Shown here piece by piece: positions 39,273-60,298 of a stretch of 64,000 nt of DNA. The stretch is from Candidatus Vogelbacteria bacterium (GTDB lineage: Bacteria; Patescibacteriota; Minisyncoccia; Phycocordibacterales; XYD1-FULL-46-19). A model generated the notes under the pieces. That model searched no databases. It was not told where the DNA came from and worked only from the letters and a program-made list of their open reading frames with translations. Within the stretch, counting starts at the first letter, position 1. Each line of letters opens with the position of its first letter. Made by a program: the position numbers and the translations under genes. The stretch covers positions 236,597 through 300,596 of the forward strand of contig JAIOOX010000002.1 of the NCBI GenBank assembly GCA_021414225.1, in the 5' to 3' direction.

Positions 39273-40128
39273 GCCTTAAAAAGCGTAGTAGGAAAACGGG
39301 GTCAAGTGGCAATCTTCGGAACCAGCGCCTCTTCAACTTTGGCGAGTTTGCAATGAAGTATTGATGTGAGTATCCGTAGACCATTCGATTGTCATTGTGC
39401 ACCATATCTTCGGTAGCAAACAAATATCCACGAACATTGTTTATCCAACTGAAACAAACAGAGATTTCAGGTGAGAGTGGCATTCGCACTTCGACCCCTC
39501 TCTGTCCAAACGCAGGAGGGAAAAAACGTTGAAATTGCATCTGACTGTTGAATAGGTATGCGGGTGCATCTGACGTAATGAAAGACACGCGTTTATTTTT
39601 CGTGCAGAGAAATGCAACATTCATTTTAGATAGGATTTCCGCAATTTTAGGGGCCATTTCTATTACGCTCATTTTGTGAGCATCTTTCTTTGCTTCCTCC
39701 CATTCCTTAGAAGATTTTGCCGGTGCTCCGTGCACTGTTTCGAGTTGCTTTGCCCAACCAATCATTTGGTCCATTTGGTTCTCAACGTGTTCTTTCTGCT
39801 TCAAGGTTCGCTGGAGCATGGCGGCGACAAACGCACAAAAAATAGCGTGCTCGTAAGGTGTAAGCGGGAGCTTGTGCTTAATCTTTTTTTCAAATATGTC
39901 GGCATACTCACTTTCAAGTTGCGCCAACGACTTTTCAATAGAATAGTCACCTTGGAATGTATAAACATCTGTTTCCGTGAGCACGCTACGGATATTCTGC
40001 CTTTTGCCTCGCTTACTTTTACGCTCAAAAATCCAAACACACGGCCCGAAGTTGCTCGGTACTTTTGGGTCTACAAACTGCTTTAAATAACATTTCGGAA
40101 TGGTGTGCTGGTTCTTCGGGTTTGACAT
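39211..40128 (-). CDS. DUF4238 family protein (Rst_DUF4238-like anti-phage candidate)
   Basis: The N-terminal hallmark H-T-I-P-x-x-Y-L-x-x-F (NQHTIPKCYLKQF) and an internal FITSDAP block are characteristic of DUF4238. Confidence 0.6.
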   Translation of the reverse strand: MSNPKNQHTIPKCYLKQFVDPKVPSNFGPCVWIFERKSKRGKRQNIRSVLTETDVYTFQGDYSIEKSLAQLESEYADIFEKKIKHKLPLTPYEHAIFCAFVAAMLQRTLKQKEHVENQMDQMIGWAKQLETVHGAPAKSSKEWEEAKKDAHKMSVIEMAPKIAEILSKMNVAFLCTKNKRVSFITSDAPAYLFNSQMQFQRFFPPAFGQRGVEVRMPLSPEISVCFSWINNVRGYLFATEDMVHNDNRMVYGYSHQYFIANSPKLKRRWFRRLPLDPVFLLRFLRHEIPARIARFRQREYYARPK

Positions 40129-41668: not shown

Positions 41669-41866
41669 ATGGTATCGTTGCCCGATTTTAAAAAAGCACT
41701 TGGACCTCTTGGCGACAAACTCACAGAAAAAGAGATTGAGCGTCTCAATATTCTTTCAGCTCAACTTGCTGGTTCTCTTTTCAATATGTGGAGCCGAAAA
41801 CTAAAAGAGAGTAGGCAGAATGAGAAACCAATAATTTATGGAAACGACCAAATACGCAATAATTGA
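41669..41866 (+). CDS. small hypothetical protein overlapping recombinase start (possible directionality factor)
   Basis: A 65-aa ORF ending 29 nt inside the recombinase ORF. It has no known domain. Confidence 0.25.
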   Translation: MVSLPDFKKALGPLGDKLTEKEIERLNILSAQLAGSLFNMWSRKLKESRQNEKPIIYGNDQIRNN

Positions 41867-43547
41867 CTGTCGCGTTAGTGACCCGCAACAGTTGAAAGGT
41901 GGAAGCTTGGAAGACCAAGAGGTTATTGGTCGTGCAACAGCAATGCGCTACAACGCAACAGTTGCGCATGTTTTTAGAAAACCACATTCAGCAACAACTA
42001 CAGAAAGAGATGATTTGGATGAAGTCATAGATTTTATTAAGAAATATCCTCATCAAATTCATTACTATATTTTTAAATGCATTGACCGATTTACCCGTGC
42101 CGGCTATCCCGAATACGAAAGAAGAAAAGCAGAATTAGAAAAACTAGGAGTTCAAATTATTGACTCCTACGGCGTAATTCAGCCGATACAAAACACACTC
42201 GACCACCTTGGTCAAAAATATAAATGGAGCATGTATTCTCCAAGTGAAATTGCTGAAATGATTTCGGCATATCAAGGAAAAGCAGAAGCAAGAGAGATTT
42301 TAACTCGAATGGTAGGTGCCGAAATCCGTCTTGTGCAAGAGGGGTTTGCTGTAAGACGCGCACCTGATGGATTACATAACAAGCGTATTTTTATTAATGG
42401 AAAAGATAGGGTCATTAGAGAAGCCGGAGAAAAAGCTCATTATTTTCAAAAGATGTATGAACTCCGAGCAGATGGTATTGATGATACGCAAATCGTCAAC
42501 ATTTTAAATGCCACAGGTTTCAAAACAAATATCTATACACGGTGGGATAGGAGTGACCCAGAACATCCTCGAAAAATTGGAACCAGAGGCGGTAAGGTTC
42601 TTACTGTAAAGCAGATGCAACGATATTTACTCCAAACAGAGTATGCCGGTGTAAGTTGTGAGAAGTGGAATAAACACAAGCCGGTCAGAACGCAGTACTT
42701 TGACGGCATTGTTTCTATAGACACTTTCAATCGAGCCAATCGTGGAAAAGTTTACATAAAAGTATCAGAGGGTGACGAGATTGAAGTGCTCTACAACTAC
42801 TCTCCTTGGGGCCGTGTAAAGCGTCTAAGAGACAATCCGATGTACCCATGGAAATGTATAGCGTGTCCTTTCTGCAATAAATCAATGCTCGGTAGTCCGT
42901 CTACTGGAAAGTCGGGTGCTAAGTTCCATGGGTATCATTGTGGTGGTTCAAAATCAGGCGACAGAGCACATGAATATTTCCGTCTTGATAAGAAAACTTT
43001 TGAGAGTAATGTGAAAAATTACTTAGACAGTTTGAAATTCGAGGATGGATTTTTAGCAGGATTGGAATTGCACCTACTTAGCGAATATCGAGAAAGAGAA
43101 AAAGAAGTTGTACTCGAATCTTCTGCAATAAGCCGAACGGTATCTGATTTAAAAGCAGAGTTGGCCCAAAAGTTGGAAGCATTCGGTTTTGCTGAAAGTC
43201 CAATCACTAGGAAAATGATTGAACAGCAAATTGCTGAACTGGATGAACAGATAAAGGGAGCAGAGAGCCAACGAATGGAAATTGAAGTAAATGAGAAGAG
43301 TATCCGTGTCTTTGTACGCTATGCAAAATACGTAATGGAACACCCGGCGGAAATCCTTACAGAAGCTTGTGATTTACAGGGTCGCCGTGCTCTTTTGGGT
43401 CTGTTCTTTGAACAAACCCCGACCTATAACGAAATACTTAATGGAACACCAAAATTAACGGCTCTTTTCAAGCTTTCTGAAGAGTTTAAGGGTAATAAAA
43501 CCCAACTGGTGACCCTACGGGGAATCGAACCCCGATTTAAGCCTTGA
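41838..43547 (+). CDS. large serine recombinase (phage-integrase type resolvase/invertase family)
   Basis: An N-terminal resolvase catalytic domain (YAIIDCRVSDPQQ...) is followed by a recombinase domain, a zinc ribbon (CIACPFCNKSMLGS...HGYHCGG) and a C-terminal coiled coil. The last 41 nt are antisense to tRNA-Glu. Confidence 0.85.
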   Translation: METTKYAIIDCRVSDPQQLKGGSLEDQEVIGRATAMRYNATVAHVFRKPHSATTTERDDLDEVIDFIKKYPHQIHYYIFKCIDRFTRAGYPEYERRKAELEKLGVQIIDSYGVIQPIQNTLDHLGQKYKWSMYSPSEIAEMISAYQGKAEAREILTRMVGAEIRLVQEGFAVRRAPDGLHNKRIFINGKDRVIREAGEKAHYFQKMYELRADGIDDTQIVNILNATGFKTNIYTRWDRSDPEHPRKIGTRGGKVLTVKQMQRYLLQTEYAGVSCEKWNKHKPVRTQYFDGIVSIDTFNRANRGKVYIKVSEGDEIEVLYNYSPWGRVKRLRDNPMYPWKCIACPFCNKSMLGSPSTGKSGAKFHGYHCGGSKSGDRAHEYFRLDKKTFESNVKNYLDSLKFEDGFLAGLELHLLSEYREREKEVVLESSAISRTVSDLKAELAQKLEAFGFAESPITRKMIEQQIAELDEQIKGAESQRMEIEVNEKSIRVFVRYAKYVMEHPAEILTEACDLQGRRALLGLFFEQTPTYNEILNGTPKLTALFKLSEEFKGNKTQLVTLRGIEPRFKP

Positions 43548-43581
43548 GAAGGCTCCGTCCTAACCGTTAGACGATAGGGCC
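43507..43581 (-). tRNA. tRNA-Glu (anticodon CUC)
   Basis: Reverse complement: GGCCCTA-TC-GTCT-AACGGTTA-GGAC-G-GAGCC-TTCTCAA-GGCTT-AAAT-CGGGG-TTCGATT-CCCCG-TAGGGTC-A-CCA. It folds into a cloverleaf with a 7-bp acceptor stem, GTTCGATTC T-loop, anticodon CTC and encoded CCA. Confidence 0.8.
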
Positions 43582-47358: not shown

Positions 47359-49839
47359 TTAAATAGCTCGGCCAGCCGTCCCCCATTGCGACAACAAGAT
47401 AGAGAAGTCGATCGAGTTAACAATATTGTCACGATTAATATCGACACAAGTGTTTTTAAATGGCGCTGGTTTTTTCCAGAACGATAGCAGAATAGAAAAG
47501 TCGACCGAATTAACTTTACTATCACCGTTAAAATCGGCTCCTTTACATGTTCCAGGGGTCACAGTACCACCAGATGGGCCTCCACCACCACCTCCTCCTC
47601 CACCGCCACCAGAACCACCACCTCCCCCACTAGTTGGAGCGGTGGCTGTAAAACTACGTGAAGCTCCAGAACTTTCTGTTCCGAAGTAAACAATCATCTT
47701 GAAGTAATAATTACCAGCGGTCGGCACATCAGCTGTCAAAGTGGTATTGAAGTCTTCACCAGCATTTATGTATTTAGCTGCCACCCCGTGGAAGATGTCA
47801 TCTCCTCCGCCACAGACGTCGCTAGCACCAGAAACTACACACCATTCATATTGATATTCATATCCAGTCGAACCTTCGTTCGTAATAGTGACATTGGCTG
47901 CTACCTGAGGAGTAACAGAATCAGAGATACTATTAATGATCACCTGGGCTGGAGCGGTTACGACAGTCCAATAATCATTACCTGGCAAAGTTTTACCGGT
48001 TTCAACATTGGCTGAGAAGACACTCTCCCATGTACCAGCCGGAGCGTTACCAGCGGTGGTGTAAGAATAACTATAAGTACCAGTCGCTGTTCTGGTCATG
48101 GCTACCGCATTAGCAATCACGTTACGACTAGGATCATAGATAGTAACAGTCGGCACGACGAGTGAGTCTGTTAATGTGCCGTTATAGATAGTAGTAATAG
48201 TTGCTAAGTAATTACTGCCGGCAGTGATACTACCAAAGTCAGAAGTAGAAACTGTCCACGGTGATTGAGATGACAATGTCAGTGAAGTTAGAGTTCTGGT
48301 TGTGGCGTTCCAAACATCTGTAGCTAAAGCACCAAATGAACTTAATGTTCGACTAGAATAACCCCAAACTGAACCTGGTAGGGTCGCCAATAGTGACGAT
48401 GAGGCATTACCTACCACTGTGTTGGTATTAGAATTTACAGATGAAATAACAGAAGCAGTTTGAGTATTGGTATTACTATTTACAACCGCAGCAACACTGG
48501 TCGACGCCGTTAAGATTGAACTGTTAGTGTTGGTATTAATGTTTGATTCACTAGTAGTGATGGCGGCGGCGAGTGATGATGAAGCGGAGTTAACATCAGA
48601 CAAAGTAGCGAGTGATCCAGAAGTTAGACCAGCCCCAGTGAGAAACGGTGTCAGTATTAGCATTCACTGCTGAAGTGACAGCCGCTGTTTGAGAGTTAGT
48701 GTTAGCGTTGATGATGGCCGCTAATGATGAAGACGCAGTTAGGATACCACTGTTAGTGTTGGAGTTGATTGCTGATTGACTGGTAGTGATGGCGGCGGCG
48801 AGTGATGATGAAGCGGAATCGATAGCACTTAGTACCCCACTGTTGTCACCGGCCGCAATTAATGAACCAATTGAAGAAGATGAAGTTAGGATAACTGAGT
48901 TAAGCATCGCGTAGATTGATGACGACGCTGAAGTGACGGTTGGCAAGATAGCAGCTGGAATGGTAGCAAGCAGTGATGACGAAGCGGTTGTGATTTGAGT
49001 AGTGATCACCCCTTGAGAAGTGGTAAGAGCGCCATTTAAGATCGCCACCACACTAGATGAAGCGGAAGCGATAGCTCCATCAACTGTGGTGAAGCGAGTA
49101 CCGAGAGTTGAAGCGAGTGATGATGACGCCGTTAAGATTGAACTGTTAGTGTTGGTATTAATGTTTGATTCACTAGTAGTGATGGCGGCGGCGAGTGATG
49201 ATGAAGCGGAGTTAACATCAGACAAAGTAGCGAGTGATCCAGAAGTTAGACCAGCCCCAGTGAGAAGATAGATCCCGGTAAAGTAGCAAAGAGTGAGGAG
49301 GAAGCGTTATTAATAGTGTCATAAAGAATATTATCATTACTATTTAATTCATCTGTCGTCGCCAATGATCCACCGTTAATAGTGGCGTCAGTCAAAGTAC
49401 GGGTTGAACTCGCCCATACAGCCGAAGAAATTGTACTACTGGATACAATCACCGCCCCTACTGAAAATGTTTTATCAACTTTGACCAATTCCCCACCAGT
49501 ACCACAACTCATACTGGCTGGCCAAATACCTTCCGGACCGATCGCGGGAATAGAATAATCATACCAATGCCATCCACTTGCCGCCTCACTCATCGCCCCG
49601 TTAGTCACAACAGCACCCCCACTTGGATCATAAATATTAGCGACACAATCTTCAGTCGAAGGCGTAAAATCATCTTCATAGACAAACTCCCCTATTGTCG
49701 CAGTGGTACCAGGAGCAAATCTCTCATAAGCCGCATAAACGGTAGTAGAAAAACCAACAATTAAAAATAGAAAAAATATTCCTAGAAAAAATCTGGTTGA
49801 AAAAAGATAACGCAGTTTATTAAATTTTCGGTGAGACAT
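47359..49839 (-). pseudogene. repeat-rich secreted protein with C-terminal dockerin-like domain, interrupted by two frameshifts (three ORFs: 49839-49246, 49225-48596, 48663-47359)
   Basis: The ORF 49246-49839 carries the signal peptide (MSHRKFNKLRYLFSTRFFLGIFFLFLIVGFSTTVYA). The middle and 3' ORFs carry tandem repeats of SASSSLAAAITTS(E/Q)S.INTNTNS.ILTAS. The 3' ORF ends with a Gly linker (GGGGGSGGGGGGGGGGGPSGG) and a type-I dockerin duplicated motif (DFNGDSKVNSVDFSILLS ... DINRDNIVNSIDFSILLS). The frame breaks lie just outside two 142-bp perfect direct repeats. Confidence 0.5.
48503..49266. repeat. two 142-bp perfect direct repeats (48503-48644 and 49125-49266) inside the dockerin-protein gene
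   Basis: The 142 nt gacgccgttaagattgaactgtt...ccagccccagtgagaa are identical at both positions, about 620 bp apart. A further diverged copy lies near 48720-48800. Confidence 0.7.
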
Positions 49840-49956: not shown

Positions 49957-50613
49957 ATGCTTAAAAAAATTCCGGAAAAATATTCCTTCAAATTAGTCTC
50001 TCTATCGGAGCTAAAGAATCTTTCTAGTTCGAAAGATTCTTTAGCTGTAAGCAGTGGCCTTGAAATTTCTCCAGAAACAATTCCAGCGACTAGTTCTCCC
50101 GATCAAGAAATAGACAATAATAAAAGAAACTTTCTAAAAATTGCTGGTATTGCTGGTCTTGGTCTAGTTGCCTCACAAATTCTACCCAAAAAAGCTGATG
50201 CACTCATCATGGGTAGCACCCCGTCATCAAGTGTGGTTGGTATCAAAGATGACACCAATACTCGAATTAATCCGGCCACTGAAGAAACTCTGACTTCCCT
50301 ACTCACCGGACAAGGAGTGACCAAATTAACAACCAGTCTCGCCGCTTCCGGCAACGTGCGCACTCCAGCCTCGGGCAAAAAGATTCGCGTCTATGCCTCA
50401 CGCTTCTCCCTCACCGCCGACGCCACTTCAGTTTCTTTTCGCTTCACCGCTGGTGGCACAGATTATGAAAAATATTTAGCCCCAAAAACTGGCGGACTGT
50501 ACGGATCAAATAATCATCCTAATTATGTCGAGGGTGGGGTGGATGAAGTGTTATACTGCAATATTGCAGGAACAACAACCGTGCAGATTAATATTGATTA
50601 TTTAGAAGTTTAG
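49957..50613 (+). CDS. hypothetical protein with internal Tat-like motif (KRNFLKIAGIAGLGLVASQ)
   Basis: A 218-aa ORF. A K-R-x-F-L-K motif followed by a hydrophobic stretch and AxA-like ADA resembles a twin-arginine signal, but it lies about 55 aa from the annotated start. Confidence 0.35.
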   Translation: MLKKIPEKYSFKLVSLSELKNLSSSKDSLAVSSGLEISPETIPATSSPDQEIDNNKRNFLKIAGIAGLGLVASQILPKKADALIMGSTPSSSVVGIKDDTNTRINPATEETLTSLLTGQGVTKLTTSLAASGNVRTPASGKKIRVYASRFSLTADATSVSFRFTAGGTDYEKYLAPKTGGLYGSNNHPNYVEGGVDEVLYCNIAGTTTVQINIDYLEV

Positions 50614-50627
50614 TTTTGTAAATTATT

Positions 50628-53276
50628 ATGGCTATACGCGCTGTTGAACACATCTTTAACGGAGACACGACCCCAATCGCTTCTTACGATTCAACCAAAA
50701 CCAATTTGGGTACTTTGATGATTCAAAAGAGTGGCCCCAACCCAGAAGATAATTTCGTGGGGCCACTACCCGTGGCAGTAGCGAGACCAATGGAAGAATC
50801 AACTGGTGTTGCAATGGTGTTTCCTCATGCTATCACCTACAGTGATACGATAGACTGGGTTTTTCTACTCGAGAACGGTGTTGCCGCCGCGAAACGTATC
50901 TTCCTTTACGAATACAACAAATCACTGGCGACATACAATTGGAAGGGATTTATTACCATGACCACTCCCACAGCTACCAACGTCAACCGTGGCTTCCGCG
51001 CCCTTCGCTACCAACACACCACCGGCACAGTAGCTGTCGCTGCTCCAGTCTCTGTTTATGCTACTGGTACAGTCACAGTTTCTCTCGCGGGCTTGGTCAC
51101 TCACTCTGCTACTGGTTTTTTAGCTACGTACGTTGGTAAAATGATTGGTTTTGGCAGTACCAACGTGGCTCAGATTAATTGTTGGTATCCAATTATTTCT
51201 TTTGCCACCACAGCTACCATGAACATCTTGGGTGCCTCGAGTGCGTATGCCGCTGGTACTGCGTTTGTGATTGCGGATTGTATTGTGACTGGAACCGGAA
51301 CCCTGTTTCAGACAGATGGTATTGCTGCAGGAACCGCTACCACCGCCATCGCCGGTGGTCTCGGGCCACGCATTGGCTTTGGCTCAACTGATCCAACCCA
51401 AATCACACAGTGGTACCATATTGGACAGATTAACAGTGACACTTCAATTGGCCTCACCACTTCACCAGGCGTCATTCCTGCCGGTACCGCTTATGTTATC
51501 GAAGAGCTTCGTTTTGCTCTCACATTAACCAACACCACTGTCGCCAACGGCGGACTCTATCTCCTTAAAGGTGCTGGCTACCATGACTTCACCACTGCCG
51601 GTTCGACTTTTCCTTCAATTACAAGTTCGGTCAATGACCAGAGAGGTGTGTATTGGCTCTCCGACGCCGGCACCACTGGTAACGTTGTTACCAACCAAGC
51701 GGCCTGTGGTCTCGCTATTGATACTGAGCTCAATAAAGGCTTACATTATGCGTACGTTCTGGATGGTATTGGTTCTACATTTATGCGCTGTTTCCGCTAT
51801 AACTTGCGCGCGACTGGTACCATCACCTCAGGTAAAATGTTAATGAGCATTGCTTATACGACCTCGACTTCATCAGCCACAACCGTAACCGTATCAGGCA
51901 CAGGTGTAACTGCTTCAGGCGCCGTCTTTACAGCATCAATGGTAGGCATGCAAATAGGTTTTAGCACCACTAGCCCTGCCAACGTAACCACGTGGTACAC
52001 AATTGCCTCATTTACTTCTTCTACTGTTGTCACCCTTTCTTCTTCTGCCGGAAGTATTGGACCAGGAGCGGCTTTTATTATCGACTCAGCCGACGTGATT
52101 TCGACCGCCCCTCAATTAGTGACTGGTACTGTCGTCGGCGTAAATAATGGTCGTGTTGGGACCCTTACTCATGGCCCAGGCGCCAATGAAAAATCATTGT
52201 ATTTTTTGACCGTAACTCGTATTTATCGAGCGGCAATTTCTAAAATATTTTCCGGCAATTTGGGCTGGATCTCTGACAATCGACCAGAAATTCCACCGGG
52301 CTCAGTGAGCACGTTTGCTGCCACATCTTTACTTAACGTAATTGAAATTTCAGATGCTATTGATCGACTGATTGTGCTTACTACAGGAGCTGCAGGTATA
52401 AAACACTATGTCACTCGCTATCCGGCAGTAGCAGGAGACCAGTTTGACCGGTTTTTTGGACTTGATGATAAACAACAAGACCAATCACTCGCTGATCCTA
52501 ATGCTCCGATTCATTTTAATACCGCCTCTCAAGTAACTTCCATTTGGAGTGAAAATGGCATCGCCCATATCGTAAAACATGGTGCGACAGCAGCCCTCTG
52601 TCAGATGTATGCCCTACCACTTGGTGCTCACTGGTTTTATGCAGAATCAACTAACCAGCGAGTAATAACACCTGAGATATTTACTCCTGATTGTAGCTCA
52701 TTCAGAAGAATGCTAACTTCGGTTGTCGACCACTTAGGGAGCGAGGAATTCCGTATTCCAACAGCGTCAACCTTCTCCTTTTATAGAACGAGTGGAATCA
52801 CCGACAACACTGGTTCTTGGACTCGGTTACCAGAAGATGGCGATTTATCAGGCCTCTCACCTTCAAGTAGTATTCAATTTATGTTTGAATTTACCACCAT
52901 TAGCCTGCTCTGTGTTCCTGGTAGAATTATGTCTCTGGCACTGCTCTATGATGATTACTCAACCGATTCTCATTACCAGCCATCAAGCGGTAAGACGGTC
53001 GAGGCTGATAAACAATTTGCGTGGCGTTTCTCCACTGCTTTTGGTTCAGCCGTACCAACATTACGAATCCGCCTCTTCGACGCAGTTACTGGTGGACTAC
53101 TTGTCGATGACGATTCAGTCACTCAGGCCGGTGATTGGGAAAAAACAGTCGATGGTGGCACTAATTGGATATCGTATGATGCTACCGATAAAGGCAATGA
53201 GATCACCTATATCCGCTACACACCAGCAACTTTGCCAGATAACATTAAAGTCAGATCCTTGCTGACACAGAATTAG
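50628..53276 (+). CDS. large paralog 1 of a tandem triplet (882 aa), novel ~75-aa internal repeats, no signal peptide
   Basis: A conserved N-terminal head (MAIRAVEHIFNGDTTPIASYDSTKTNLGTLMIQKSGPNPEDNFVGPLPVAVARPMEE) is followed by repeated GT.xV.GTAVTG...IGFGST.P..IT.WY.I......I.L.SS.G.I..G.AYVI units. The C-terminal module (HYVTRYP...DDKQQDQS...IQFMFEF...DSHYQ...YIRYTP...VR.LLTQN) is conserved in all three. Confidence 0.6.
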   Translation: MAIRAVEHIFNGDTTPIASYDSTKTNLGTLMIQKSGPNPEDNFVGPLPVAVARPMEESTGVAMVFPHAITYSDTIDWVFLLENGVAAAKRIFLYEYNKSLATYNWKGFITMTTPTATNVNRGFRALRYQHTTGTVAVAAPVSVYATGTVTVSLAGLVTHSATGFLATYVGKMIGFGSTNVAQINCWYPIISFATTATMNILGASSAYAAGTAFVIADCIVTGTGTLFQTDGIAAGTATTAIAGGLGPRIGFGSTDPTQITQWYHIGQINSDTSIGLTTSPGVIPAGTAYVIEELRFALTLTNTTVANGGLYLLKGAGYHDFTTAGSTFPSITSSVNDQRGVYWLSDAGTTGNVVTNQAACGLAIDTELNKGLHYAYVLDGIGSTFMRCFRYNLRATGTITSGKMLMSIAYTTSTSSATTVTVSGTGVTASGAVFTASMVGMQIGFSTTSPANVTTWYTIASFTSSTVVTLSSSAGSIGPGAAFIIDSADVISTAPQLVTGTVVGVNNGRVGTLTHGPGANEKSLYFLTVTRIYRAAISKIFSGNLGWISDNRPEIPPGSVSTFAATSLLNVIEISDAIDRLIVLTTGAAGIKHYVTRYPAVAGDQFDRFFGLDDKQQDQSLADPNAPIHFNTASQVTSIWSENGIAHIVKHGATAALCQMYALPLGAHWFYAESTNQRVITPEIFTPDCSSFRRMLTSVVDHLGSEEFRIPTASTFSFYRTSGITDNTGSWTRLPEDGDLSGLSPSSSIQFMFEFTTISLLCVPGRIMSLALLYDDYSTDSHYQPSSGKTVEADKQFAWRFSTAFGSAVPTLRIRLFDAVTGGLLVDDDSVTQAGDWEKTVDGGTNWISYDATDKGNEITYIRYTPATLPDNIKVRSLLTQN

Positions 53277-53279
53277 TCC

Positions 53280-55706
53280 ATGTCGCTACGCGCTGTCGAA
53301 CACATTTTTAACGGAGATACGACCCCAATCGCTTCTTACGATTCTACCAAAACAAATTTGGGTACTTTGATGATTCAAAAGAGTGGCCCCAACCCAGAAG
53401 ATAATTTCGTGGGGCCACTACCCGTGGCAGTAGCGAGACCAATGGAAGAATCGACAGCGGTGACAATGATTTTCCCATCAGTAATTACTTTTAGCTCAAC
53501 GGTGGACTGGGTTTTTTTGATAGAAAACGTTGCATCAGCAGCAAAACGTATCTTCCTTTACGAATACAATAAATCACTCGCGACCTACAATTGGAAGGGT
53601 TTTATCACAGCTACCACGCCAGCCGCTACCAACGTTGCTCGTGGTTTCCGCGCCCTAAGATACCAACACACGACCGGCACCGTCGCTGTCGCTGCTCCTG
53701 TTTCAGTCTACGCAACTGGAACAGTAACAGTCACGATCGCTGGACTAGTAACTCACTCTGCTACCGGCTTTCTTGCGACGTATGTGGGAAAAATGATCGG
53801 CTTTGGAAGCACGAACGTCGCTCAGATCAATTGTTGGTACCCAATCATCTCTTTTGCTACTACTGCTACAATGAACATCTTGGGCGCCTCGAGCGCGTAT
53901 GCAGCTGGTACCGCGTTTGTGATTGCTGACTGTATTGTGACGGGGACAAGCACTTTATTTACGACTGACTTGGTAGCCGCCGGCACCGGCGCTACCGCAG
54001 TTGCTGGCGGTCTCGGACCGCGTATTGGGTTTGGCTCAACTAACCCCGAGTTGATTACTCAGTGGTATCACATCGGGCAAATTAACAGCGACACCTCCAT
54101 TGGTCTCACCACTTCACCGGGCGTGATACCTGCAGGCACACCCTATGTGATTGAGGAACTTCGCTTTGCTATTGCCCTCACCAACACGACTCCTGCCAAC
54201 GGTGGCCTCTTCCTACTTAAGGGTGCCGGGTATCATGATTTCACTACTGCTGGATCAACATTTCCGTCGATCGCCACCTCAGTCACCAATCAACGTGGCG
54301 TATATTGGCTTTGTGATGCCGGAGCTGGAGCCGTCACCAACACCGCCGCCAACGGACTTGCTGTCGCTACTGAAGTAGATAAGCAAACCCATTTTGCTTA
54401 TGTCTTGAATGGCACCAACACATCAAATGCAGTTATATACAAATATAATCTACGCGCCAACAACACTGTAGCCACTGGAAAAATGCAACTCGCTGGTGCC
54501 AACATTGTTATCAGTGGTACCCAAGCGATAACCGGTACTATCCCCAACCAATCAGCGCAAAACTTGGAAATTGCTACTACGTCGCATGGTCCGGGGTCTG
54601 GCTCATCGTATTTATATTTTGTTACCACCACCCGCCTATACTGCGCCGCAGTCTCTGCCATCACTGCCGGCAACACCCCTTTTGCTGTAGCAGCTGCCGC
54701 TCGACAAGAAATCCCTCCAGGAGGGGTGGCTACTTTCCCCGCCACCGCAACAATGACCAACATCGCCTATCTCAACACTATTGATCGTTTTGTGATTACC
54801 AATTATACCGCCAACACATCACTTCGCCATTACGTTACAAGATACCCCGAGACCGATACAACACCATTTGATCATATTTTTGGTATCGACGACAAACAAC
54901 AAGACCAATCACTTTCTGATCCTCGATTGGCAATTCATTTCAATACTGGCGCTCAACTCTTATCGGTAGCAAGCAGTGAAGGAGTTATGCATATCGTGAG
55001 AATGGGTGCTACCGCCTTATTAAACCAATTATACGCACTGCCATTTGGAGCTCATTGGACATACGCTTCAGCAACTAGCCAGAGAATTATCACCCCATCA
55101 ATTACTACTACGGATTGTGTTAAATTTGATCAAGTACTTACCTACGACATTCATCATCTTGGCGAGGATGTCTTCGGATTACCTCCTGAAACATATCGAA
55201 TATATTATCGCACAGCCGACATCGGGAGCGACGCCACCAGCTCATGGGCACTTGTTGGTGAGGGCGGAGATTTATCGGCCGTGACTCCAGCCAACGCCAT
55301 TCAGTTTATGTTTGAGTTTTTCACCATTGGCGCCCTTTGCTTGCCATCACGCATCATGAAAGTGGCAGTCACCTATGAAGATGGCTCAACCGATTCGCAT
55401 TACCAATTATCAGCTGGCCTATCAGATATCACCAATGAGCACTTCACGTGGAGGTTCGCTCAACCTTTTGGTGGCACGGTGCCGGAATTAAAAATTGAGC
55501 TATTCAACGCCGCTACTAACGCTTCTATTTTTACCGATCCCACCGTCGGGCCAACCAATGGTGCTTGGACAAAATCAATTGATGGTGGCAGCAACTGGAT
55601 AGGCTACAATGATACAGACAAGACCAACGAGATCACTTACATACGCTATACCCCTAACTCCACCCTTGGGAGCATAACTGTCAGGGCACTGCTAACTCAA
55701 AATTAA
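53280..55706 (+). CDS. large paralog 2 of the tandem triplet (808 aa)
   Basis: It has the same head, repeats and C-terminal module. Its first ~170 nt are nearly identical to paralog 1, including a 97-nt block with 100% identity. Confidence 0.6.
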   Translation: MSLRAVEHIFNGDTTPIASYDSTKTNLGTLMIQKSGPNPEDNFVGPLPVAVARPMEESTAVTMIFPSVITFSSTVDWVFLIENVASAAKRIFLYEYNKSLATYNWKGFITATTPAATNVARGFRALRYQHTTGTVAVAAPVSVYATGTVTVTIAGLVTHSATGFLATYVGKMIGFGSTNVAQINCWYPIISFATTATMNILGASSAYAAGTAFVIADCIVTGTSTLFTTDLVAAGTGATAVAGGLGPRIGFGSTNPELITQWYHIGQINSDTSIGLTTSPGVIPAGTPYVIEELRFAIALTNTTPANGGLFLLKGAGYHDFTTAGSTFPSIATSVTNQRGVYWLCDAGAGAVTNTAANGLAVATEVDKQTHFAYVLNGTNTSNAVIYKYNLRANNTVATGKMQLAGANIVISGTQAITGTIPNQSAQNLEIATTSHGPGSGSSYLYFVTTTRLYCAAVSAITAGNTPFAVAAAARQEIPPGGVATFPATATMTNIAYLNTIDRFVITNYTANTSLRHYVTRYPETDTTPFDHIFGIDDKQQDQSLSDPRLAIHFNTGAQLLSVASSEGVMHIVRMGATALLNQLYALPFGAHWTYASATSQRIITPSITTTDCVKFDQVLTYDIHHLGEDVFGLPPETYRIYYRTADIGSDATSSWALVGEGGDLSAVTPANAIQFMFEFFTIGALCLPSRIMKVAVTYEDGSTDSHYQLSAGLSDITNEHFTWRFAQPFGGTVPELKIELFNAATNASIFTDPTVGPTNGAWTKSIDGGSNWIGYNDTDKTNEITYIRYTPNSTLGSITVRALLTQN

Positions 55707-55709
55707 TCC

Positions 55710-58547
55710 ATGCCATACCGCGCCGTAAAACATACATTCACCGGAAGCACCACTCCTATTACTTCCTACGATTACACCAAAACCAATTTGGGAACATTAA
55801 TGGTGCAAAATACTGGATCGCTCGCAACTGACAAATACGTCGGGCCAATTCCAATGGCCGTTGCAACTCCAATGCAAGAAGTAGTCGATACTGTGGGCAC
55901 TGTTTCTGTATCTGGTACAGCAGTTACCGGCAATAGCACCAATTTTCAAACGTCCATGATCGGTATGGCGATCGGATTCGGCTCAACAGACCCTGCAAAA
56001 GTAACAGCGTGGTACAGCATCTCAGCTCGAGCATCAACTACCGGCATCACTCTGGGTTCTTCAGCGGGAACTATCGGCGCCACTACGCCGTATGTTGTCG
56101 TCTATAACACACCCATGATGTATCCCCATGTCATGACATATAGCTCGACTATTGACTGGGTGTTTATGATTGAGAACTTGGCCACCTCTGTTGCACCAAG
56201 AAAGATTTGTCTGTATGAATACAATAAAACTACTTCGGTCTACACTTGGAAAGGTTTCGTTGTCGCAACCCTACTGACCTCAGCCGCAGCGCACACTTTG
56301 CGTGGCTTTCGAGCACTGAGATATCTACACACCACCGGCACCGTTGAAGTCTCAGGCACTGCCGTTACCGGATCAGGCACCGCATGGCTCGACGAAGGTA
56401 TTGCTGTCGGTGCGCGTATTGGTTTTGGATCGACCGACCCAACAGCTATTGTTAGTTGGTATGTTATCTCAGCCATTGGCGGTGAGACAGGAATCACTCT
56501 TGCAAGTTCTGCCGGCACTCTTGCCACTGGCACCGCATACGTAATCGAGGAACTCCGTTTTGCGATCACCTCCACCAACGCCACCGTCGCCAATGGCGGA
56601 TTACACCTCGTCAAAGGAGTAAATTATGATGATTTCGTGCCTACAGGCACCACGATTGCCGTCGCAACGACGACTGACAATATCAAAGCGACGTATTGGC
56701 TCTCTGACGCCGGCACTGCCGGTAACGTCGTTACCAACCAATCAGCGTGTGGACTCACCGTCGCTCCTGAAGTGAGCAAGGGCTTGCACTATGCGTATGT
56801 CCTTGATGGTTTTGGTTCGACTTTTGCGCGCGTCTACCGCTACAACCTCCGCGCCACCGGTACTATCGCTTCAGGCAAAATGACCATGTCGATTGCCTAT
56901 TATACAACTGGCACCGTGCAAGTAGCCGGCACCGCAGTCACTGGATCGGGCACAACATTCACTTCAAGCATGGTTGGAATGAAAATTGGCTTTAATGCGA
57001 CAAGCCCGGCCACGGTCACAACCTGGTATACGATCGCCTCTTTTACTGATGCGGCAAACATTACCCTGACAACATCAGCAGGAACAATTGGTGCTGGCGC
57101 GGTATATATTATTGATACAGCTGATGTTGTCTCTACCGCCCCCCAACTGGTAACCGGTACGTTATCAGGAGTAAATAACGGCCGATACGGCACTCTCAAT
57201 CATGGCCCATGGGCAGGAGAAGCGTCCTTGTTTTTTGTCACTACCACCCGTATTTATCGCGCCAATGTCGCCAAAATATTTGCCGGCAATTTGGGCTGGA
57301 TTTCTGATAACCGCCCAGAAATTCCACCAGGATCAGCAAGCACCTTCCCGGCGACATCACTTTTGAGTAGTGTCGAGATCGCAGACAATATGGATCGACT
57401 TATTGTCGCCACTACTGGCGCTACTGGGGTCAGACACTATATCACCAAATACCCCACTGCAGCCGGAGATCCTTTTGACCACATCTGGGGTGTAGATGAT
57501 AAACAACAAGACCAAGCGTCGTCTCTGGGCAATGCCTACATCTCTTCTGGCACTGTTGCCGTGTCAGGCACGGCAGTCACCGGCACCAACACCTTCTTTG
57601 TCGCCGCCATGGTGGGCTATCGTATCGGATTCGGATCAACCAATCCAACCGCGATTTCTACTTGGTATACCATTTCCGCTTTTACCTCTCTGACATCTAT
57701 TACCCTTTCATCGGGCGCCGGCACAATCGGTGCAGGCTCGGCCTATGTCATTGATTGGAATAGCTATACGGTGCCTCATTTTAATACCGCTTCTCAAATC
57801 ATTTCTCTATGGAGTGAAAATGGTATTGCTCATATCGTCAAACATGGCACCACCACCGCCCTATCACAAATGTATTCATTACCGCTTTCTGCACATTGGA
57901 CATACGCAGCATCGACTAACCAGCGAGTAATCACTCCTGCCTTATATACCCCCGACTGTACTCAGTTTCGTAATGTGGCAGTTACTCATGATGATAGACT
58001 TGGAACAGGAGAATTTGCCATCAATACCGAACCATATCGTATTTATTTTAGAACAAAGGGCATTATCAACAACGCTGGTGAATGGACTCTCATCGATCCT
58101 GATGGTGACTTGACTGGCCTTGTCGGAGCGCCACGCATCCAATTCATGTTTGAATTTTCAACTGTTGGTACGTTCTGCATTCCGGCTCGCATCATGAGTC
58201 TCACGGTCGTCTATGATGATACCGGCACCACCACCGATTCTCATTATCAACCATCACCAGGATTATCAAATGCGAGCAGTAAACAATTTGTGTGGCGCTT
58301 TGCGACGGCTTTTGGTGGAACCGTACCAACCTTAAGAATTAGACTATACAATGCCGTGACTAATGATCTGCTTGTCGACGACTACACTACTTCTACCAAC
58401 AGTGGCACCTGGGCAAAGTCGACCAACAGTGGTGGCGCGTGGGGATCGTACAATACGACCGATAAAGGTAATGAAACCACCTATATTCGCTACACACCAG
58501 CGTCATTAGGTGATAATATAAAAGTAAGAGCAGTATTAACCCAATAA
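55710..58547 (+). CDS. large paralog 3 of the tandem triplet (945 aa) with four clear copies of the ~75-aa repeat
   Basis: The head is MPYRAVKHTFTGSTTPITSYDYTKTNLGTLMVQ. Repeat starts include GTVSVSGTAVTGNSTNF, GTVEVSGTAVTGSGTAW, GTVQVAGTAVTGSGTTF and GTVAVSGTAVTGTNTFF. The C-terminal module is conserved. Confidence 0.6.
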   Translation: MPYRAVKHTFTGSTTPITSYDYTKTNLGTLMVQNTGSLATDKYVGPIPMAVATPMQEVVDTVGTVSVSGTAVTGNSTNFQTSMIGMAIGFGSTDPAKVTAWYSISARASTTGITLGSSAGTIGATTPYVVVYNTPMMYPHVMTYSSTIDWVFMIENLATSVAPRKICLYEYNKTTSVYTWKGFVVATLLTSAAAHTLRGFRALRYLHTTGTVEVSGTAVTGSGTAWLDEGIAVGARIGFGSTDPTAIVSWYVISAIGGETGITLASSAGTLATGTAYVIEELRFAITSTNATVANGGLHLVKGVNYDDFVPTGTTIAVATTTDNIKATYWLSDAGTAGNVVTNQSACGLTVAPEVSKGLHYAYVLDGFGSTFARVYRYNLRATGTIASGKMTMSIAYYTTGTVQVAGTAVTGSGTTFTSSMVGMKIGFNATSPATVTTWYTIASFTDAANITLTTSAGTIGAGAVYIIDTADVVSTAPQLVTGTLSGVNNGRYGTLNHGPWAGEASLFFVTTTRIYRANVAKIFAGNLGWISDNRPEIPPGSASTFPATSLLSSVEIADNMDRLIVATTGATGVRHYITKYPTAAGDPFDHIWGVDDKQQDQASSLGNAYISSGTVAVSGTAVTGTNTFFVAAMVGYRIGFGSTNPTAISTWYTISAFTSLTSITLSSGAGTIGAGSAYVIDWNSYTVPHFNTASQIISLWSENGIAHIVKHGTTTALSQMYSLPLSAHWTYAASTNQRVITPALYTPDCTQFRNVAVTHDDRLGTGEFAINTEPYRIYFRTKGIINNAGEWTLIDPDGDLTGLVGAPRIQFMFEFSTVGTFCIPARIMSLTVVYDDTGTTTDSHYQPSPGLSNASSKQFVWRFATAFGGTVPTLRIRLYNAVTNDLLVDDYTTSTNSGTWAKSTNSGGAWGSYNTTDKGNETTYIRYTPASLGDNIKVRAVLTQ

Positions 58548-58562
58548 TTTTTTTAACTTTTT

Positions 58563-59150
58563 ATGATTTATTTAACTAAAGGTCAGCCATTACTAGATAA
58601 CCCAAACTTGGTAGTTTATGATCCAACTGGTTATTATAACGATGGAGATTCCGTGATCTGTGCCTCAATCGGGTTACCAGAAGAGCCAGTTTGTCGTTAT
58701 GAAGCCAAATATGTTCTTTATGGCGGAATGGTCTATTCTATCTCTAACCCGGATGATTTAATGACTGAAATAATAAAAATAGATCCGGCTAGTTTGTTTG
58801 GTAAGGACAGTCAACAAGTCGCCGTCGACAAAATGGTGGAAAAAATAGTACCCCAAGAACCCGGTGAAGTAGTTGAAGAAGCAACAACAGAGGAGGTTGA
58901 TCCAACAGATACTTTAACCGAAGAAGAAATCATCAATGACCCTTTGATTGAAACTGAAGATAGTGAGATTACCGACCCCACTTCAACTACCACACCAGAT
59001 GCTATTATCCCAGAAGTTATTACTCCTTTAGAGACCACTTCAACCACTTCTCCAACCAACGTAATAGAAGCTACCCAAACCGCAACCACTGACCCAGTCA
59101 CTATTGATTCTGTTGTAGGTACATCGACCGACACCACTAGTAATTTATAA
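58563..59150 (+). CDS. hypothetical protein with acidic T/S/P/E-rich low-complexity C-terminal half
   Basis: A 195-aa ORF. It may be a partner of the triplet locus. Confidence 0.35.
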   Translation: MIYLTKGQPLLDNPNLVVYDPTGYYNDGDSVICASIGLPEEPVCRYEAKYVLYGGMVYSISNPDDLMTEIIKIDPASLFGKDSQQVAVDKMVEKIVPQEPGEVVEEATTEEVDPTDTLTEEEIINDPLIETEDSEITDPTSTTTPDAIIPEVITPLETTSTTSPTNVIEATQTATTDPVTIDSVVGTSTDTTSNL

Positions 59151-59157
59151 ATAACCT

Positions 59158-59340
59158 ATGGCGATTATTGATATTGTTGGACAATCAGGAGACGCTCAGG
59201 ATTTTATTCTAGAAATTCCCACCGGCAATGCTAGTTATGTTCCCGCTGACACCCTCGTTGAAGACGATGGCTCTTTGCTTTGTGTCGAAATACCAGAAGT
59301 GACTGGAGGTGGTGGAAATATCTTTATCATGTCAGAATAA
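59158..59340 (+). CDS. small hypothetical acidic protein
   Basis: A 60-aa ORF immediately upstream of tatC. Confidence 0.25.
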   Translation: MAIIDIVGQSGDAQDFILEIPTGNASYVPADTLVEDDGSLLCVEIPEVTGGGGNIFIMSE

Positions 59341-59343
59341 CTA

Positions 59344-60087
59344 TTGTGTCTGACTGAAGTAATTTCGCCAATGGATGAATTTGAAGAAAAATTAAAAGAA
59401 TACAGTCCCTATCTCGAGGATTTATTCCGCCGAATCTACATCATAACTATTGCTTTTATTGGTTTTTTTGTCGTTGGTTTTTTTCTAGCTGGACCAATCA
59501 TTAAGTTGTTGACCAGTTTTTTTGACTTCAAAGACGTCACCCTAGCCACCACTTCCCCTTTTCAATTTGTCGGACTAGCTATGGATGCCGGTTTGTTTTT
59601 TGCGATGATTTTTTGTATCCCATTATGTGTTTATCATCTCTATAAATTCACTGGGACTGGCTTAAGAAAAAAGGAGCGGACTATGATTTTACTCATCCTA
59701 CCTCTCAGCCTAATACTCTTTTTACTTGGCTTTGCTTATTGTTTCTCTATGCTCTACTTTACAATGCAAACCCTCGCCACCATTAATGTTGGTTTCGGTT
59801 TTACCAATCTCTGGGATATTAGTATGTTTTTATCACAAATAATCTCCACCTCAGTCTTACTTGGCCTCCTCTTTGAATTCCCTATTTTGATGACAGTTTT
59901 GGTTAAATTTGAGATGTTTAATGTTAATTTTTTAAAAGAAAAGAGGCGTCATGTTTTTTTTGTGATGTTTATTTTAACTTCTTTACTTCCCCCAACTGAT
60001 GGTATATCATTATTATTAATGGTATTACCACTTATTGTTATGTATGAAGCAACAATCATTTATAACATGCTTAATACCGGGCGTTAA
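59344..60087 (+). CDS. tatC: twin-arginine translocase subunit TatC
   Basis: A six-TM protein with TatC family blocks (RRIYIITIAFIGFFVVGFFLA...; LSLILFLLGFAYCFSML; PPTDGISLLLM). Confidence 0.8.
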   Translation: MCLTEVISPMDEFEEKLKEYSPYLEDLFRRIYIITIAFIGFFVVGFFLAGPIIKLLTSFFDFKDVTLATTSPFQFVGLAMDAGLFFAMIFCIPLCVYHLYKFTGTGLRKKERTMILLILPLSLILFLLGFAYCFSMLYFTMQTLATINVGFGFTNLWDISMFLSQIISTSVLLGLLFEFPILMTVLVKFEMFNVNFLKEKRRHVFFVMFILTSLLPPTDGISLLLMVLPLIVMYEATIIYNMLNTGR

Positions 60088-60121
60088 AGAAAATTTATAA
60101 ATTAAAACCCATTTAAATAAT

Positions 60122-60298
60122 ATGTTTGGACTTGGAACAAAAGAATTAATTATTATAGCAGTCATTTTTATTTTATTGTTTGGTGCCAAAAGAATTCCGG
60201 AATTAGCTAAAAGTTTAGTTGATGCAATTAAACACATTAGAGGAGCCTTCAAAGATTTAGATGAACCTAAATCAGACACTGATAACAAGAAAAAATAA
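60122..60298 (+). CDS. tatA: twin-arginine translocase subunit TatA/E (58 aa; not in ORF track because <60 aa)
   Basis: MFGLGTKELIIIAVIFILLFGAKRIPELAKSLVDAIKHIRGAFKDL has the classic TatA TM plus amphipathic helix with the FG..K.PE hinge. It is found by manual translation from the ATG at 60122. Confidence 0.75.
   Translation: MFGLGTKELIIIAVIFILLFGAKRIPELAKSLVDAIKHIRGAFKDLDEPKSDTDNKKK

Follow-up and report, generated by a model that had tools for sequence, protein, structure and literature searches.

CPR bacteria (Patescibacteria) account for a large share of bacterial diversity and live attached to other microbes; to our knowledge, little has been established about how they recognise their hosts. 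They encode TatA and TatC yet are largely devoid of the redox enzymes usually served by the Tat pathway. TatA and TatC of Paceibacteria have been reported with no substrates named (PMC9166423). The 64-kb stretch of Candidatus Vogelbacteria DNA analysed here (the window) contains three large tandem genes located upstream of tatC and tatA, and it raises the question of what their signal-less products are, how they might leave the cell and what they would do outside it.

The locus is an operon of eight tightly packed, co-directional genes in the order sTat, g1, g2, g3, p195, p60, tatC, tatA, separated by 14, 3, 3, 15, 7, 3 and 34 nt. Together with a divergent neighbour it comprises the following features.

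47359 to 49839, minus strand: conserved neighbouring gene, transcribed away from the operon; its product has a membrane anchor or a Sec-type signal and, at the C-terminus, a dockerin-like domain
49957 to 50613, plus strand: sTat, 218 aa; long N-terminal extension, predicted Tat-type signal, linker of about 35 aa (RINPATEETL), jelly-roll domain
50122 to 50202, plus strand: core of the predicted Tat-type signal of sTat; K56-R57-N-F-L-K61, h-region AGIAGLGLVASQIL, c-region PKKADA
50314 to 50610, plus strand: jelly-roll domain of sTat, residues 120-218
50628 to 53276, plus strand: g1, 882 aa; predicted beta-propeller protein with three copies of a 72-aa domain
53280 to 55706, plus strand: g2, 808 aa; two copies of the 72-aa domain; the protein whose structure was predicted
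55710 to 58547, plus strand: g3, 945 aa; four copies of the 72-aa domain
58563 to 59150, plus strand: p195; conserved N-terminal domain of about 100 aa and an acidic Thr/Pro-rich tail
59158 to 59340, plus strand: p60; conserved 60-aa acidic protein immediately 5′ of tatC
59344 to 60087, plus strand: tatC (Pfam TatC 1.3e-36; TIGR00945 1.3e-30)
60122 to 60298, plus strand: tatA (Pfam TatA_B_E 1.1e-13)

The initial annotation had reported three tandem paralogs of 882, 808 and 945 aa on the plus strand, all of which stand, and its positions for tatC and tatA agree with the Pfam matches. The two small acidic ORFs that it placed near the tat genes are p195 and p60, each with a pI of 4.05. In this window p195 is devoid of the basic C-terminal tail carried by most of its orthologues. 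Apart from the Tat-signal model, no Pfam or NCBIfam family matched g1-g3, sTat, p195 or p60; DUF7182 and Adeno_VII gave only weak, below-threshold matches in that search of the operon proteins. No PADLOC defence-system model matched the six proteins, promoter and terminator scans gave a signal no better than in shuffled sequence, and no description of the operon was found in the literature searched. The operon is a candidate Tat-exported cell-surface apparatus that apparently has not been described so far. Mur ligase and PBP genes lie downstream of it, a recombinase and a tRNA gene lie 7 kb upstream, and the GC content is elevated over g1-g3.

The same order recurs in more than 60 species of CPR bacteria of the Paceibacteria group: a signal-bearing small protein, one to three big proteins, an acidic protein of about 200 aa, an acidic protein of 60 aa, TatC and TatA. 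In these species the operon ORFs are intact, including the tat genes, and the housekeeping neighbours vary. The big genes are invariably sited between the signal-bearing sTat gene and tatC.

The absence of a Tat signal from the three big proteins does not extend to the operon as a whole. The ORF just upstream of g1 (sTat) has what its sequence marks as a Tat-type signal of the lysine-arginine kind. Its motif N-K-R-N-F-L-K has KR where the consensus S/T-R-R-x-F-L-K has RR. The h-region, AGIAGLGLVASQIL, is moderately hydrophobic, with a Kyte-Doolittle maximum of 1.58 over 19 residues, and is followed by a basic c-region and an AxA signal-peptidase site, with cleavage predicted after A82 (PKKADA, then L). 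The window protein scores 13.0 bits with TIGR01409 against a cut-off of 16.7, and two orthologues score 17.7 and 18.8 bits. A cleavage site could be placed in 83 of 120 sTat homologues; among these 83 the KRxFLK-type motif and the AxA site are conserved, the latter as AEA, ASA, ADA or ANA in 82. KR prevails throughout the family, a true RR being rare, and the region preceding it is unusually long (50-118 aa). No other Tat-like signal occurs within the window. The protein is 100% identical to P0121 from a Candidatus Vogelbacteria MAG.

Is the neighbourhood of the Tat genes accidental, as the initial annotation allowed? The linkage across genomes refutes this. When loci were found through sTat, tatC lay on the same strand in all 44 species loci that reach the end of the operon, directly after the p195/p60 genes in 42 of them, at a distance from p60 of -21 to +44 nt in 39. 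When loci were found through the big protein, tatC/tatA were present in 13 of 14 of the CPR type. The exception (L147) is a CPR locus with cargo genes and no tat genes within 6 kb. It is also the only case in which a signal-bearing sTat has no Tat genes nearby, and signal-less sTat homologues occur without Tat genes in a phage-like context. The earlier description of the export route as non-canonical or unknown is not supported: the gene upstream has a Tat-type signal, and tatC/tatA are linked in 44/44 loci found through sTat and in 13/14 found through the big protein.

A second conserved locus type begins with a counterpart of the extension, signal and linker at the N-terminus of sTat (an hhalign match with E 3e-27), joined to unrelated cargo. 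Signal-less, phage-like proteins occupy the place of the big proteins, and tatC-tatA stand at the end in all three loci that extend so far. The possibility that this cargo is a diverged big protein was rejected (hhalign probability 0.1). Judged from sequence, the extension, signal and linker of sTat make up a portable targeting cassette.

The big proteins are acidic, rich in Thr, Ala, Gly and Ser, and have masses of 86-100 kDa each. As initially reported, none of the three has a signal peptide; neither has any a membrane segment. An in-frame upstream extension of their genes is impossible because the preceding gaps measure 14, 3 and 3 nt. Alignment bears out the common N-terminal head and C-terminal module: the first 57 or so residues are nearly identical between g1 and g2 and 63% identical in g3, and the C-terminal 260-400 aa share 49-61% identity. 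Their relatedness is mosaic: between g1 and g2 identity is 82% in the first 407 aa and 49% in the C-terminal part, whereas g1 and g3 share 61-63% identity from residue 215 on. The family comprises 546 clusters at 50% identity, and most genomes have a single big gene. This is the ancestral state, and the triplet is a lineage-specific triplication. The description of these proteins as variable needs revision: across candidate CPR lineages, orthologues keep 70-91% identity, which indicates purifying selection, and it is the copy number of the 72-aa domain that varies.

That domain, first noticed as a repeat of about 75 aa, is real, with profile scores of 72-97 bits. It is inserted one to four times per big protein at differing sites, and the extra copies therefore account for the differences in length. 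Every family member has a core copy, which ends YVIEELRF in g1. The copies in the window, all on the plus strand, are as follows.

51060 to 51275, plus strand: g1 copy 1, residues 145-216, profile 77 bits
51291 to 51503, plus strand: g1 copy 2, residues 222-292, core copy, profile 90 bits
51873 to 52085, plus strand: g1 copy 3, residues 416-486, profile 77 bits
53712 to 53927, plus strand: g2 copy 1, residues 145-216, profile 75 bits
53937 to 54155, plus strand: g2 copy 2, residues 220-292, core copy, profile 85 bits
55890 to 56102, plus strand: g3 copy 1, residues 61-131, profile 89 bits
56331 to 56549, plus strand: g3 copy 2, residues 208-280, core copy, where the match to phrog_1591 is strongest
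56904 to 57116, plus strand: g3 copy 3, residues 399-469, profile 87 bits
57543 to 57755, plus strand: g3 copy 4, residues 612-682, profile 97 bits

The repeat had not been recognised at first, and it indeed matches nothing in Pfam. It does match the N-terminal region of the PHROG family phrog_1591, 'tail fiber protein' (repeat of g3, 1.3e-12, profile positions 3-76 of 484). g1 and g2 matched no PHROG, and in g3 the match is confined to the 72-aa domain, leaving most of the protein without a match to a tail-fibre family. A PDB sequence search with the repeat profile gave only chance-level matches (E >= 0.19). In the predicted structure of g2 six four-stranded blades surround a central axis, and by this model the big proteins fold as beta-propellers with six blades. 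Such a fold is generic, and no binding or catalytic site was recognised in it.

Within the triplet, g1 and g2 share an identical block that is 98 nt long and lies about 10 nt from where it had initially been placed.

50703 to 50800, plus strand: 98-nt tract of gene conversion as it stands in g1, identical in g2
53355 to 53452, plus strand: 98-nt tract of gene conversion as it stands in g2, identical in g1

The background around it is 79% identical over 1039 nt, and third codon positions are only 51% identical; an identical run of that length did not arise in any of 20,000 shuffles that preserved codon position. Recent gene conversion had been suspected, and the comparison of genomes agrees: eight of nine triplet genomes have identical g1/g2 tracts, at differing positions and 98-577 nt long. 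The triplet is partly homogenised, in its N-terminal half, by ongoing gene conversion, which explains the 98-nt block. A conserved nucleotide element was rejected as its identity, given that the tracts vary in place and length between genomes, as was an assembly artefact, given that eight independent assemblies show such tracts at differing positions.

Kinship with proteins of the tail-fibre or receptor-binding kind had been suggested from the sequence and is upheld by the match of the repeat to a tail-fibre PHROG and by full-length homologues that adjoin tail-fibre genes in phage contigs. Homologues of the big proteins with 27-46% identity occur in 53 IMG/VR loci. A tblastn search of g2 against 50,697 deposited phage genomes gave no match, and the phage link is seen solely in these metagenomic contigs. 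One contig (L090) encodes a terminase, a portal protein, a protease-capsid protein and a tape measure, with the homologue located between the portal and the protease-capsid gene; in L102, L089 and L111 tail-fibre genes adjoin it. In some loci, profiles of sTat, the p195 N-domain and p60 match ORFs neighbouring the phage homologue. These contigs have neither a Tat signal nor Tat genes, and the homologue is usually in the tail-fibre region. The N-terminal head of the big proteins is conserved in the phage homologues, which speaks against the earlier proposal that the first 60 aa serve as an export signal, given that Tat genes are absent there. The copies in the window are chromosomal, with no phage genes adjacent besides the operon. 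For the direction of transfer the basis is a roughly built neighbour-joining tree, rooted at its midpoint.

The divergent neighbour of sTat has an N-terminal hydrophobic segment, a Dockerin_1 match (4.9e-8) and a weak MG2 match. In the window it is broken into three ORFs (49246-49839, 48596-49225 and 47359-48663) that match a single 710-aa protein of L069 in frames -2/-1/-2. Its homologues adjoin the operon in 56 of 79 CPR loci.

Taken together, the operon can be read as a module of phage kinship that a dedicated Tat system exports, the big proteins probably riding on sTat, a reading to which we give an even chance. In the cytoplasm, sTat would bind the N-terminal head of each big protein; this head, conserved in the phage homologues and homogenised by conversion, fits a shared docking surface. 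The folded complex would then pass TatAC on the signal of sTat (hitchhiking), after which the signal would be cleaved. The complex may be displayed on the cell surface, possibly held there by the flanking anchored protein, and its propellers would bind or process glycans on the surface of a partner cell. Help with assembly or proofreading could come from p60 and p195. In hydrogenase systems, small dedicated chaperones bind long signal peptides. Several points count against the model. Export of the big proteins and their binding to sTat are both inferred, and the phage homologues work without export, which is then not intrinsic to the family. Cargo of 86-100 kDa each, plus sTat, would be at the upper end of the known Tat load. 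The below-cut-off TIGR01409 score of the window's signal, its KR in place of RR behind a long leading region, the L147 locus, the generic nature of the fold and the roughness of the tree used for the direction of transfer also weigh against it. More tentatively, CPR bacteria of the Paceibacteria group may have adopted a receptor-binding module from phages and provided it with a portable KR Tat cassette and a private TatAC. Large folded propellers would then leave on the small jelly-roll adaptor and form part of the apparatus with which these ultra-small cells recognise or attack their hosts, and a second cargo set would share the cassette.

The size of the cargo also favours export of sTat alone, the big propellers remaining cytoplasmic, for instance as enzymes or assembly factors, or being freed by lysis, and the operon link reflecting co-regulation. 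The big proteins are without signal or membrane segment, and their phage homologues need no export. We nevertheless consider it unlikely, for most of the operon consists of the big genes, which always lie between the signal-bearing gene and tatC, the second locus type puts other signal-less, phage-like proteins in the same place, and the conserved neighbour is a surface-anchored protein. It is rather doubtful that the big proteins are exported not as adhesins but as glycan-degrading enzymes, sialidase- or endosialidase-like depolymerases acting on the polysaccharide of the partner: non-catalytic NHL propellers score equally well, and Pfam and NCBIfam give no glycosidase match, including to GH33/GH58.

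Improbable, too, is an S-layer or other envelope lattice with the paralogs as alternative or co-assembling subunits. The acidic, abundant-type character of the proteins, with much Thr, Ala, Gly and Ser, their high conservation within the lineage and the nearby Mur ligase and PBP genes would suit such a lattice, but neither a Sec signal nor an SLH or other wall-anchor domain was found by Pfam and signal searches, most genomes have one copy, and the phage homologues sit in tail-fibre regions. Those same homologues, the raised GC across g1-g3 and the recombinase and tRNA gene could instead point to a decaying prophage fragment with an accidental tatC-tatA adjacency and an identical block produced by assembly. 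This is scarcely credible and already largely refuted by the constant order, with unbroken ORFs and with tat genes, across more than 60 species whose housekeeping neighbours vary, by the absence of further adjacent phage genes, by the eight independent assemblies with differently placed tracts and by the purifying selection evident from orthologue identity (70-91%).

On the preferred reading, the operon is a concrete and conserved candidate substrate set for Tat in CPR bacteria, and several hundred clusters annotated 'hypothetical protein' acquire a role through it. It shows a family in which the KR signal variant is the rule and not the exception, an apparent recruitment of phage structural genes to a cellular export pathway and possibly an extreme case of hitchhiking, with passengers of 86-100 kDa. 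If the more tentative reading is true, cofactor-free surface machinery derived from phages would be a Tat substrate of a new class, and Tat in CPR bacteria would gain a function.

In Bacillus subtilis, a single-membrane bacterium, phoD-tatAd-tatCd pairs a minimal TatAC with its substrate PhoD. Like the operon described here, it joins a two-component TatA-TatC and a substrate, which in the present case is a candidate one; PhoD, however, is a single enzyme with its own RR signal, whereas here an adaptor would serve signal-less cargo and the arrangement is conserved over a whole CPR class. The Tat hitchhikers of E. coli (HybO-HybC, DmsA-DmsB, PaoABC) have the signal on one subunit and signal-less partners encoded alongside, which leave with it as a folded complex. 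Their partners are encoded with the carrier just as the big proteins, without an export signal of their own, are encoded with the carrier sTat. Ternary hitchhiking is established for PaoABC, in which three chains travel on one signal (PMC4273604). The known hitchhikers are redox enzymes with cofactors. In the present operon no cofactor domain turned up, and the proposed complex would have a small jelly-roll protein with a KR motif as carrier and propellers of 86-100 kDa as passengers.

Like phage tail-fibre and receptor-binding modules with their assembly helpers downstream, the big-protein family combines a head conserved at the N-terminus with inserted domains that vary and is followed by small ORFs. 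It differs from them in that the prediction is a globular propeller with six blades instead of a trimeric fibre, the genes are chromosomal and outside prophages, the partner has gained a Tat signal and tat genes have been added. Surface structures with Tat-dependent subunits are represented by the haloarchaeal Tat-fimbriae, 'tafi' (PMC11821415); these are archaeal and filament-forming, and their major subunit TafA has been shown to use the Tat pathway; neither homology to tafi nor a sign of filaments was found here. The mosaic adhesive trimer (MAT) fibres of Bdellovibrio bacteriovorus, which itself lives on other bacteria, are phage-fibre-like, mosaic and multi-copy and recognise prey (PMC10769870). 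Their export route differs, and the function here is inferred; with no kinship of sequence or fold claimed, they are the closest functional analogy to a reading of the big proteins as surface adhesins.

Directly 5' of the three big paralogs lies an ORF that the initial annotation had overlooked. It encodes a small protein, sTat, and heads an operon in which the big genes g1-g3 are followed by genes for two acidic proteins, p195 (~200 aa) and p60 (60 aa), and by tatC and tatA. The features of the region are as follows.

47359-49839, minus strand: divergent neighbour gene; N-terminal membrane or Sec-type segment and C-terminal dockerin-like domain
49957-50613, plus strand: sTat, 218 aa
50628-53276, plus strand: g1, 882 aa
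53280-55706, plus strand: g2, 808 aa
55710-58547, plus strand: g3, 945 aa
50703-50800 (g1) and 53355-53452 (g2), plus strand: identical block, 98 nt

The three consecutive big ORFs (882/808/945 aa) are present as annotated, and the identity of the adjoining tatC and tatA is confirmed. The signal region of sTat (...DNNKRNFLKIAGIAGLGLVASQILPKKADA and then LIMGSTPSSS...) is built like a Tat signal, in that it combines an x-F-L-K motif and a mildly hydrophobic core with a basic c-region and an AxA site, and it carries Lys-Arg where Arg-Arg is expected. A curated Tat-signal model gives it 13.0 bits (cut-off 16.7) and two orthologues 17.7 and 18.8 bits. The cleavage site can be located in 83 of 120 homologues; in these the motif is KRxFLK with few exceptions, and AEA, ASA or ADA comes after it. 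A true RR appears in rare members (SKRRLFLR). The signal is preceded in the homologues by an extension of 50-118 aa with a conserved start, M..K-Y/H-S-F-K/R-L. The mature protein (residues 83-218) comprises a ~35-aa linker with RINPATEETL and a jelly roll of eight predicted strands (residues 120-218, pLDDT ~90). We hold with good confidence that sTat is a Tat substrate. A 100% identical protein is labelled Candidatus Vogelbacteria, and further close homologues carry the labels Zambryskibacteria and Pacebacteria.

Scanning species-representative genomes for sTat yields 79 CPR loci with a common gene order: sTat, big gene(s), a p195-like gene, p60, tatC and tatA (one or two copies). A single big gene of 708-889 aa is present in 35 of the 46 loci having a complete one, and the 880/808/945 triplet is confined to one subclade. 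tatC lies on the same strand in all 44 loci reaching the operon end, directly 3' of the p195/p60 genes in 42 and upstream in two; 39 of these 42 have a p60-tatC gap of -21 to +44 nt, p60 not being detected in the other three. Because this set was found through sTat, the linkage was retested on metagenome loci found through the big protein, and tatC/tatA are present in 13 of the 14 CPR-type loci that extend beyond p60. In the exception, L147, the cargo genes are followed by type IV pilus genes rather than tat. The initial annotation had allowed that the Tat neighbourhood might be coincidental. Since both search routes give the linkage, co-localisation is a property of the system rather than chance, and a functional tie between the operon and Tat is very highly probable.

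Several details of these loci deserve mention. The listed tatC ORF (59344) begins at TTG and its first ATG is codon 10, so that the real start may be 59371. The window p195 (58563-59150) and its closest relatives are without the strongly basic C-terminal tail (e.g. ...AFAKKLVKNKISKKLGL) typical of most orthologues. The pilus genes of L147 (16482-22620) are type IV pilin-like genes and a secretion ATPase on the opposite strand, and a T2SSE-type ATPase lies near the operon in L003 (2888-4570).

The relationship of g1-g3 is a mosaic: identity between g1 and g2 is 82% up to residue 407 and 49% over the remainder, while g1 and g3 share 61-63% from residue 215 on. No Pfam, NCBIfam or PADLOC model matches them. 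A profile search detects copies of a ~72-aa unit, three in g1, two in g2 and four in g3, at 72-97 bits each, and across the family protein length follows copy number exactly:

1 copy: 706-792 aa (706-734 in all except two phage homologues)
2 copies: 797-813 aa
3 copies: 880-896 aa
4 copies: 945-947 aa

Two phage proteins of far greater length (1107 and 1118 aa) hold a single confident copy each. The copy ending YVIEELRF is common to every family member, and the remaining copies are inserted at varied sites (residues ~61, 79, 145, 357, 416, 454 and 612). The repeats described in a 'variable middle' are thus real, while the middle itself, given that length tracks copy number around one universal copy and scattered insertions, is a fixed scaffold into which a domain duplicates. 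Nor is the repeat wholly novel, as had been supposed: in g3 it matches the N-terminal part of phrog_1591, 'tail fiber protein', over three stretches (1.3e-12). The domain has no sequence relative in the PDB. The AlphaFold2 model of g2, built with 67 homologues, is all-beta (pLDDT 87.3, pTM 0.81); the predicted fold is clear and does not name a function. The big proteins are high in Thr, Ala, Gly and Ser, and GC content is 47-50% over their genes (50001-58000) against 37-42% on either side, a contrast that may come from the residue composition or from a foreign source.

The identical block shared by g1 and g2 is likewise real, being 98 rather than 97 nt long and placed ~10 nt from its annotated position. 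Third codon positions of the two genes agree at only 51% overall, and a run as long as the block arose in none of 20,000 codon-position-preserving shuffles. Identical g1/g2 tracts occur in eight of nine triplet-carrying genomes at differing positions and lengths (577, 460, 385, 143, 127, 120+101 and 98 nt), and the g1 and g2 copies of one genome often resemble each other more than orthologues from different genomes do, e.g. 86% against 79%. These observations bear out the proposal of recent gene conversion, which on the sequence comparisons is ongoing and limited to the N-terminal half of the big genes. An artefact of one assembly is unlikely, and a conserved nucleotide element is rejected because tract position and length vary among genomes.

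Full-length homologues of the big proteins are found in 53 IMG/VR loci at 27-46% identity, none of which has tatC/tatA within 10 kb. Real tailed phages are among them: L090 carries genes for a large terminase, portal, protease-capsid fusion, adaptor and tape measure, the pair in L095 lies between an upstream holin-like gene (weak PHROG match) and a downstream endolysin gene, and in L102, L089 and L111 tail-fibre or minor-tail genes lie directly 5' of the homologue. A further one of these phages, L084, encodes a homing endonuclease and a Dam methylase alongside collagen-repeat proteins. Used as profiles, mature sTat, the p195 N-domain and p60 match ORFs adjoining the big homologue in several viral contigs, where the sTat homologues retain the INPAT linker and jelly roll and the KRxFLK motif and hydrophobic core are absent. 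Viral contigs show tandem duplication too, L084 carrying three copies and L093 two. The Tat-linked copies are nested among deeper and more diverse viral sequences in a rough neighbour-joining tree, which suggests, without proving it, a phage-to-cell capture of the family. Searched with a profile, 1.84 billion representative proteins yielded 546 clusters, most of them ~710 aa among the matches listed. Two viral entries stand apart. L084 (2447-4582, 16921-20383) combines its three tandem big paralogs with a type IX secretion sorting-domain protein (Por_Secre_tail) and two collagen-repeat proteins, which hints that some of these phages may infect Bacteroidota rather than CPR. L083, an IMG/VR contig of 5148 nt with 74% identity to g2, clusters with the chromosomal triplet in the tree and probably represents a piece of a CPR genome wrongly filed among the viruses.

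Of the 79 loci, 56 have a homologue of the divergent neighbour gene beside the operon, upstream or just past the tat genes, the N-terminal domain of its product being the near-constant part. The window version is three ORFs in different frames that jointly match one 710-aa protein of another CPR genome, the cause being a frameshift in the gene or else misassembly of a repeat. Farther left, a 569-aa serine recombinase (41838-43581, plus strand) overlaps the 3' part of a minus-strand tRNA-Glu(CTC), beyond which lie an AAA_13 ATPase (33819-36029) and a DUF4238 protein (39211-40128); the region resembles an integrated element or a defence island.

Eighteen further CPR loci (L065-L082, e.g. L069 9737-19439) bear the KR signal cassette on a different protein, sharing only the N-terminal extension, signal and linker with sTat (hhalign E 3e-27, 109 columns). 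Here the genes after that of the cassette protein form a different conserved set: signal-less proteins of 873, 606, 81 and 183 aa come first, then one of 373 aa that weakly matches a glucosaminidase, and tatC-tatA close the locus in all three loci that extend to this point. A glucosaminidase-like domain known from these loci also occurs in the gene at the p195 place of L057 and L060. The 873-aa protein, considered as a diverged big protein, has no detectable relationship to the propeller family. Cassette and TatAC together thus resemble an export device that can be reused for phage-like cargo.

Building on the operon, signal, Tat linkage, folds, phage kinship and conversion, a mechanism can be proposed in which sTat would dock on the conserved 57-aa head of every big protein. 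The folded complex would pass the membrane via TatAC using the sTat signal, which would be cut off after export, and the product would reside on the cell surface, perhaps held by the flanking anchored protein, binding or cutting glycans of a partner cell. Hydrogenase chaperones serve in assembly and signal proofreading, and by analogy p60 and p195 may be such helpers.

The big proteins themselves have no signal peptide, as annotated: their N-termini are not hydrophobic, membrane segments are absent, gaps of only 3-14 nt exclude a missed upstream signal, and sTat is the only ORF of the 64-kb window that bears a Tat-like signal. Nor does the N-terminal head appear to be the export signal that had been suggested; it is conserved in the phage copies also, and by this comparison is the protein's own architecture rather than a CPR export tag. 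Export of sTat alone would fit these data, while the signal-less cargo between cassette and tatC in the second locus type is consistent with co-export, which we regard as nearly balanced, falling slightly on the doubtful side. For the exported product an adhesin-type role is put forward tentatively; a depolymerase or an S-layer component are the competing roles. The phage kinship could also mark the locus as an accidental prophage remnant, a reading largely refuted, given the conserved gene order and Tat linkage.

In B. subtilis, phoD-tatAdCd links a minimal TatAC to its substrate. Hitchhiking of PaoABC is a precedent for co-export (PMC4273604), haloarchaea have surface filaments that depend on Tat (PMC11821415), and phage-fibre-like adhesins are found in a predatory bacterium (PMC10769870). 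Tat has been noted in Paceibacteria, with substrates not given (PMC9166423), and no description of the operon was found in the literature searched. Each precedent covers one aspect of the present operon and none joins all of them in a single system, one that is testable and relevant to CPR biology.
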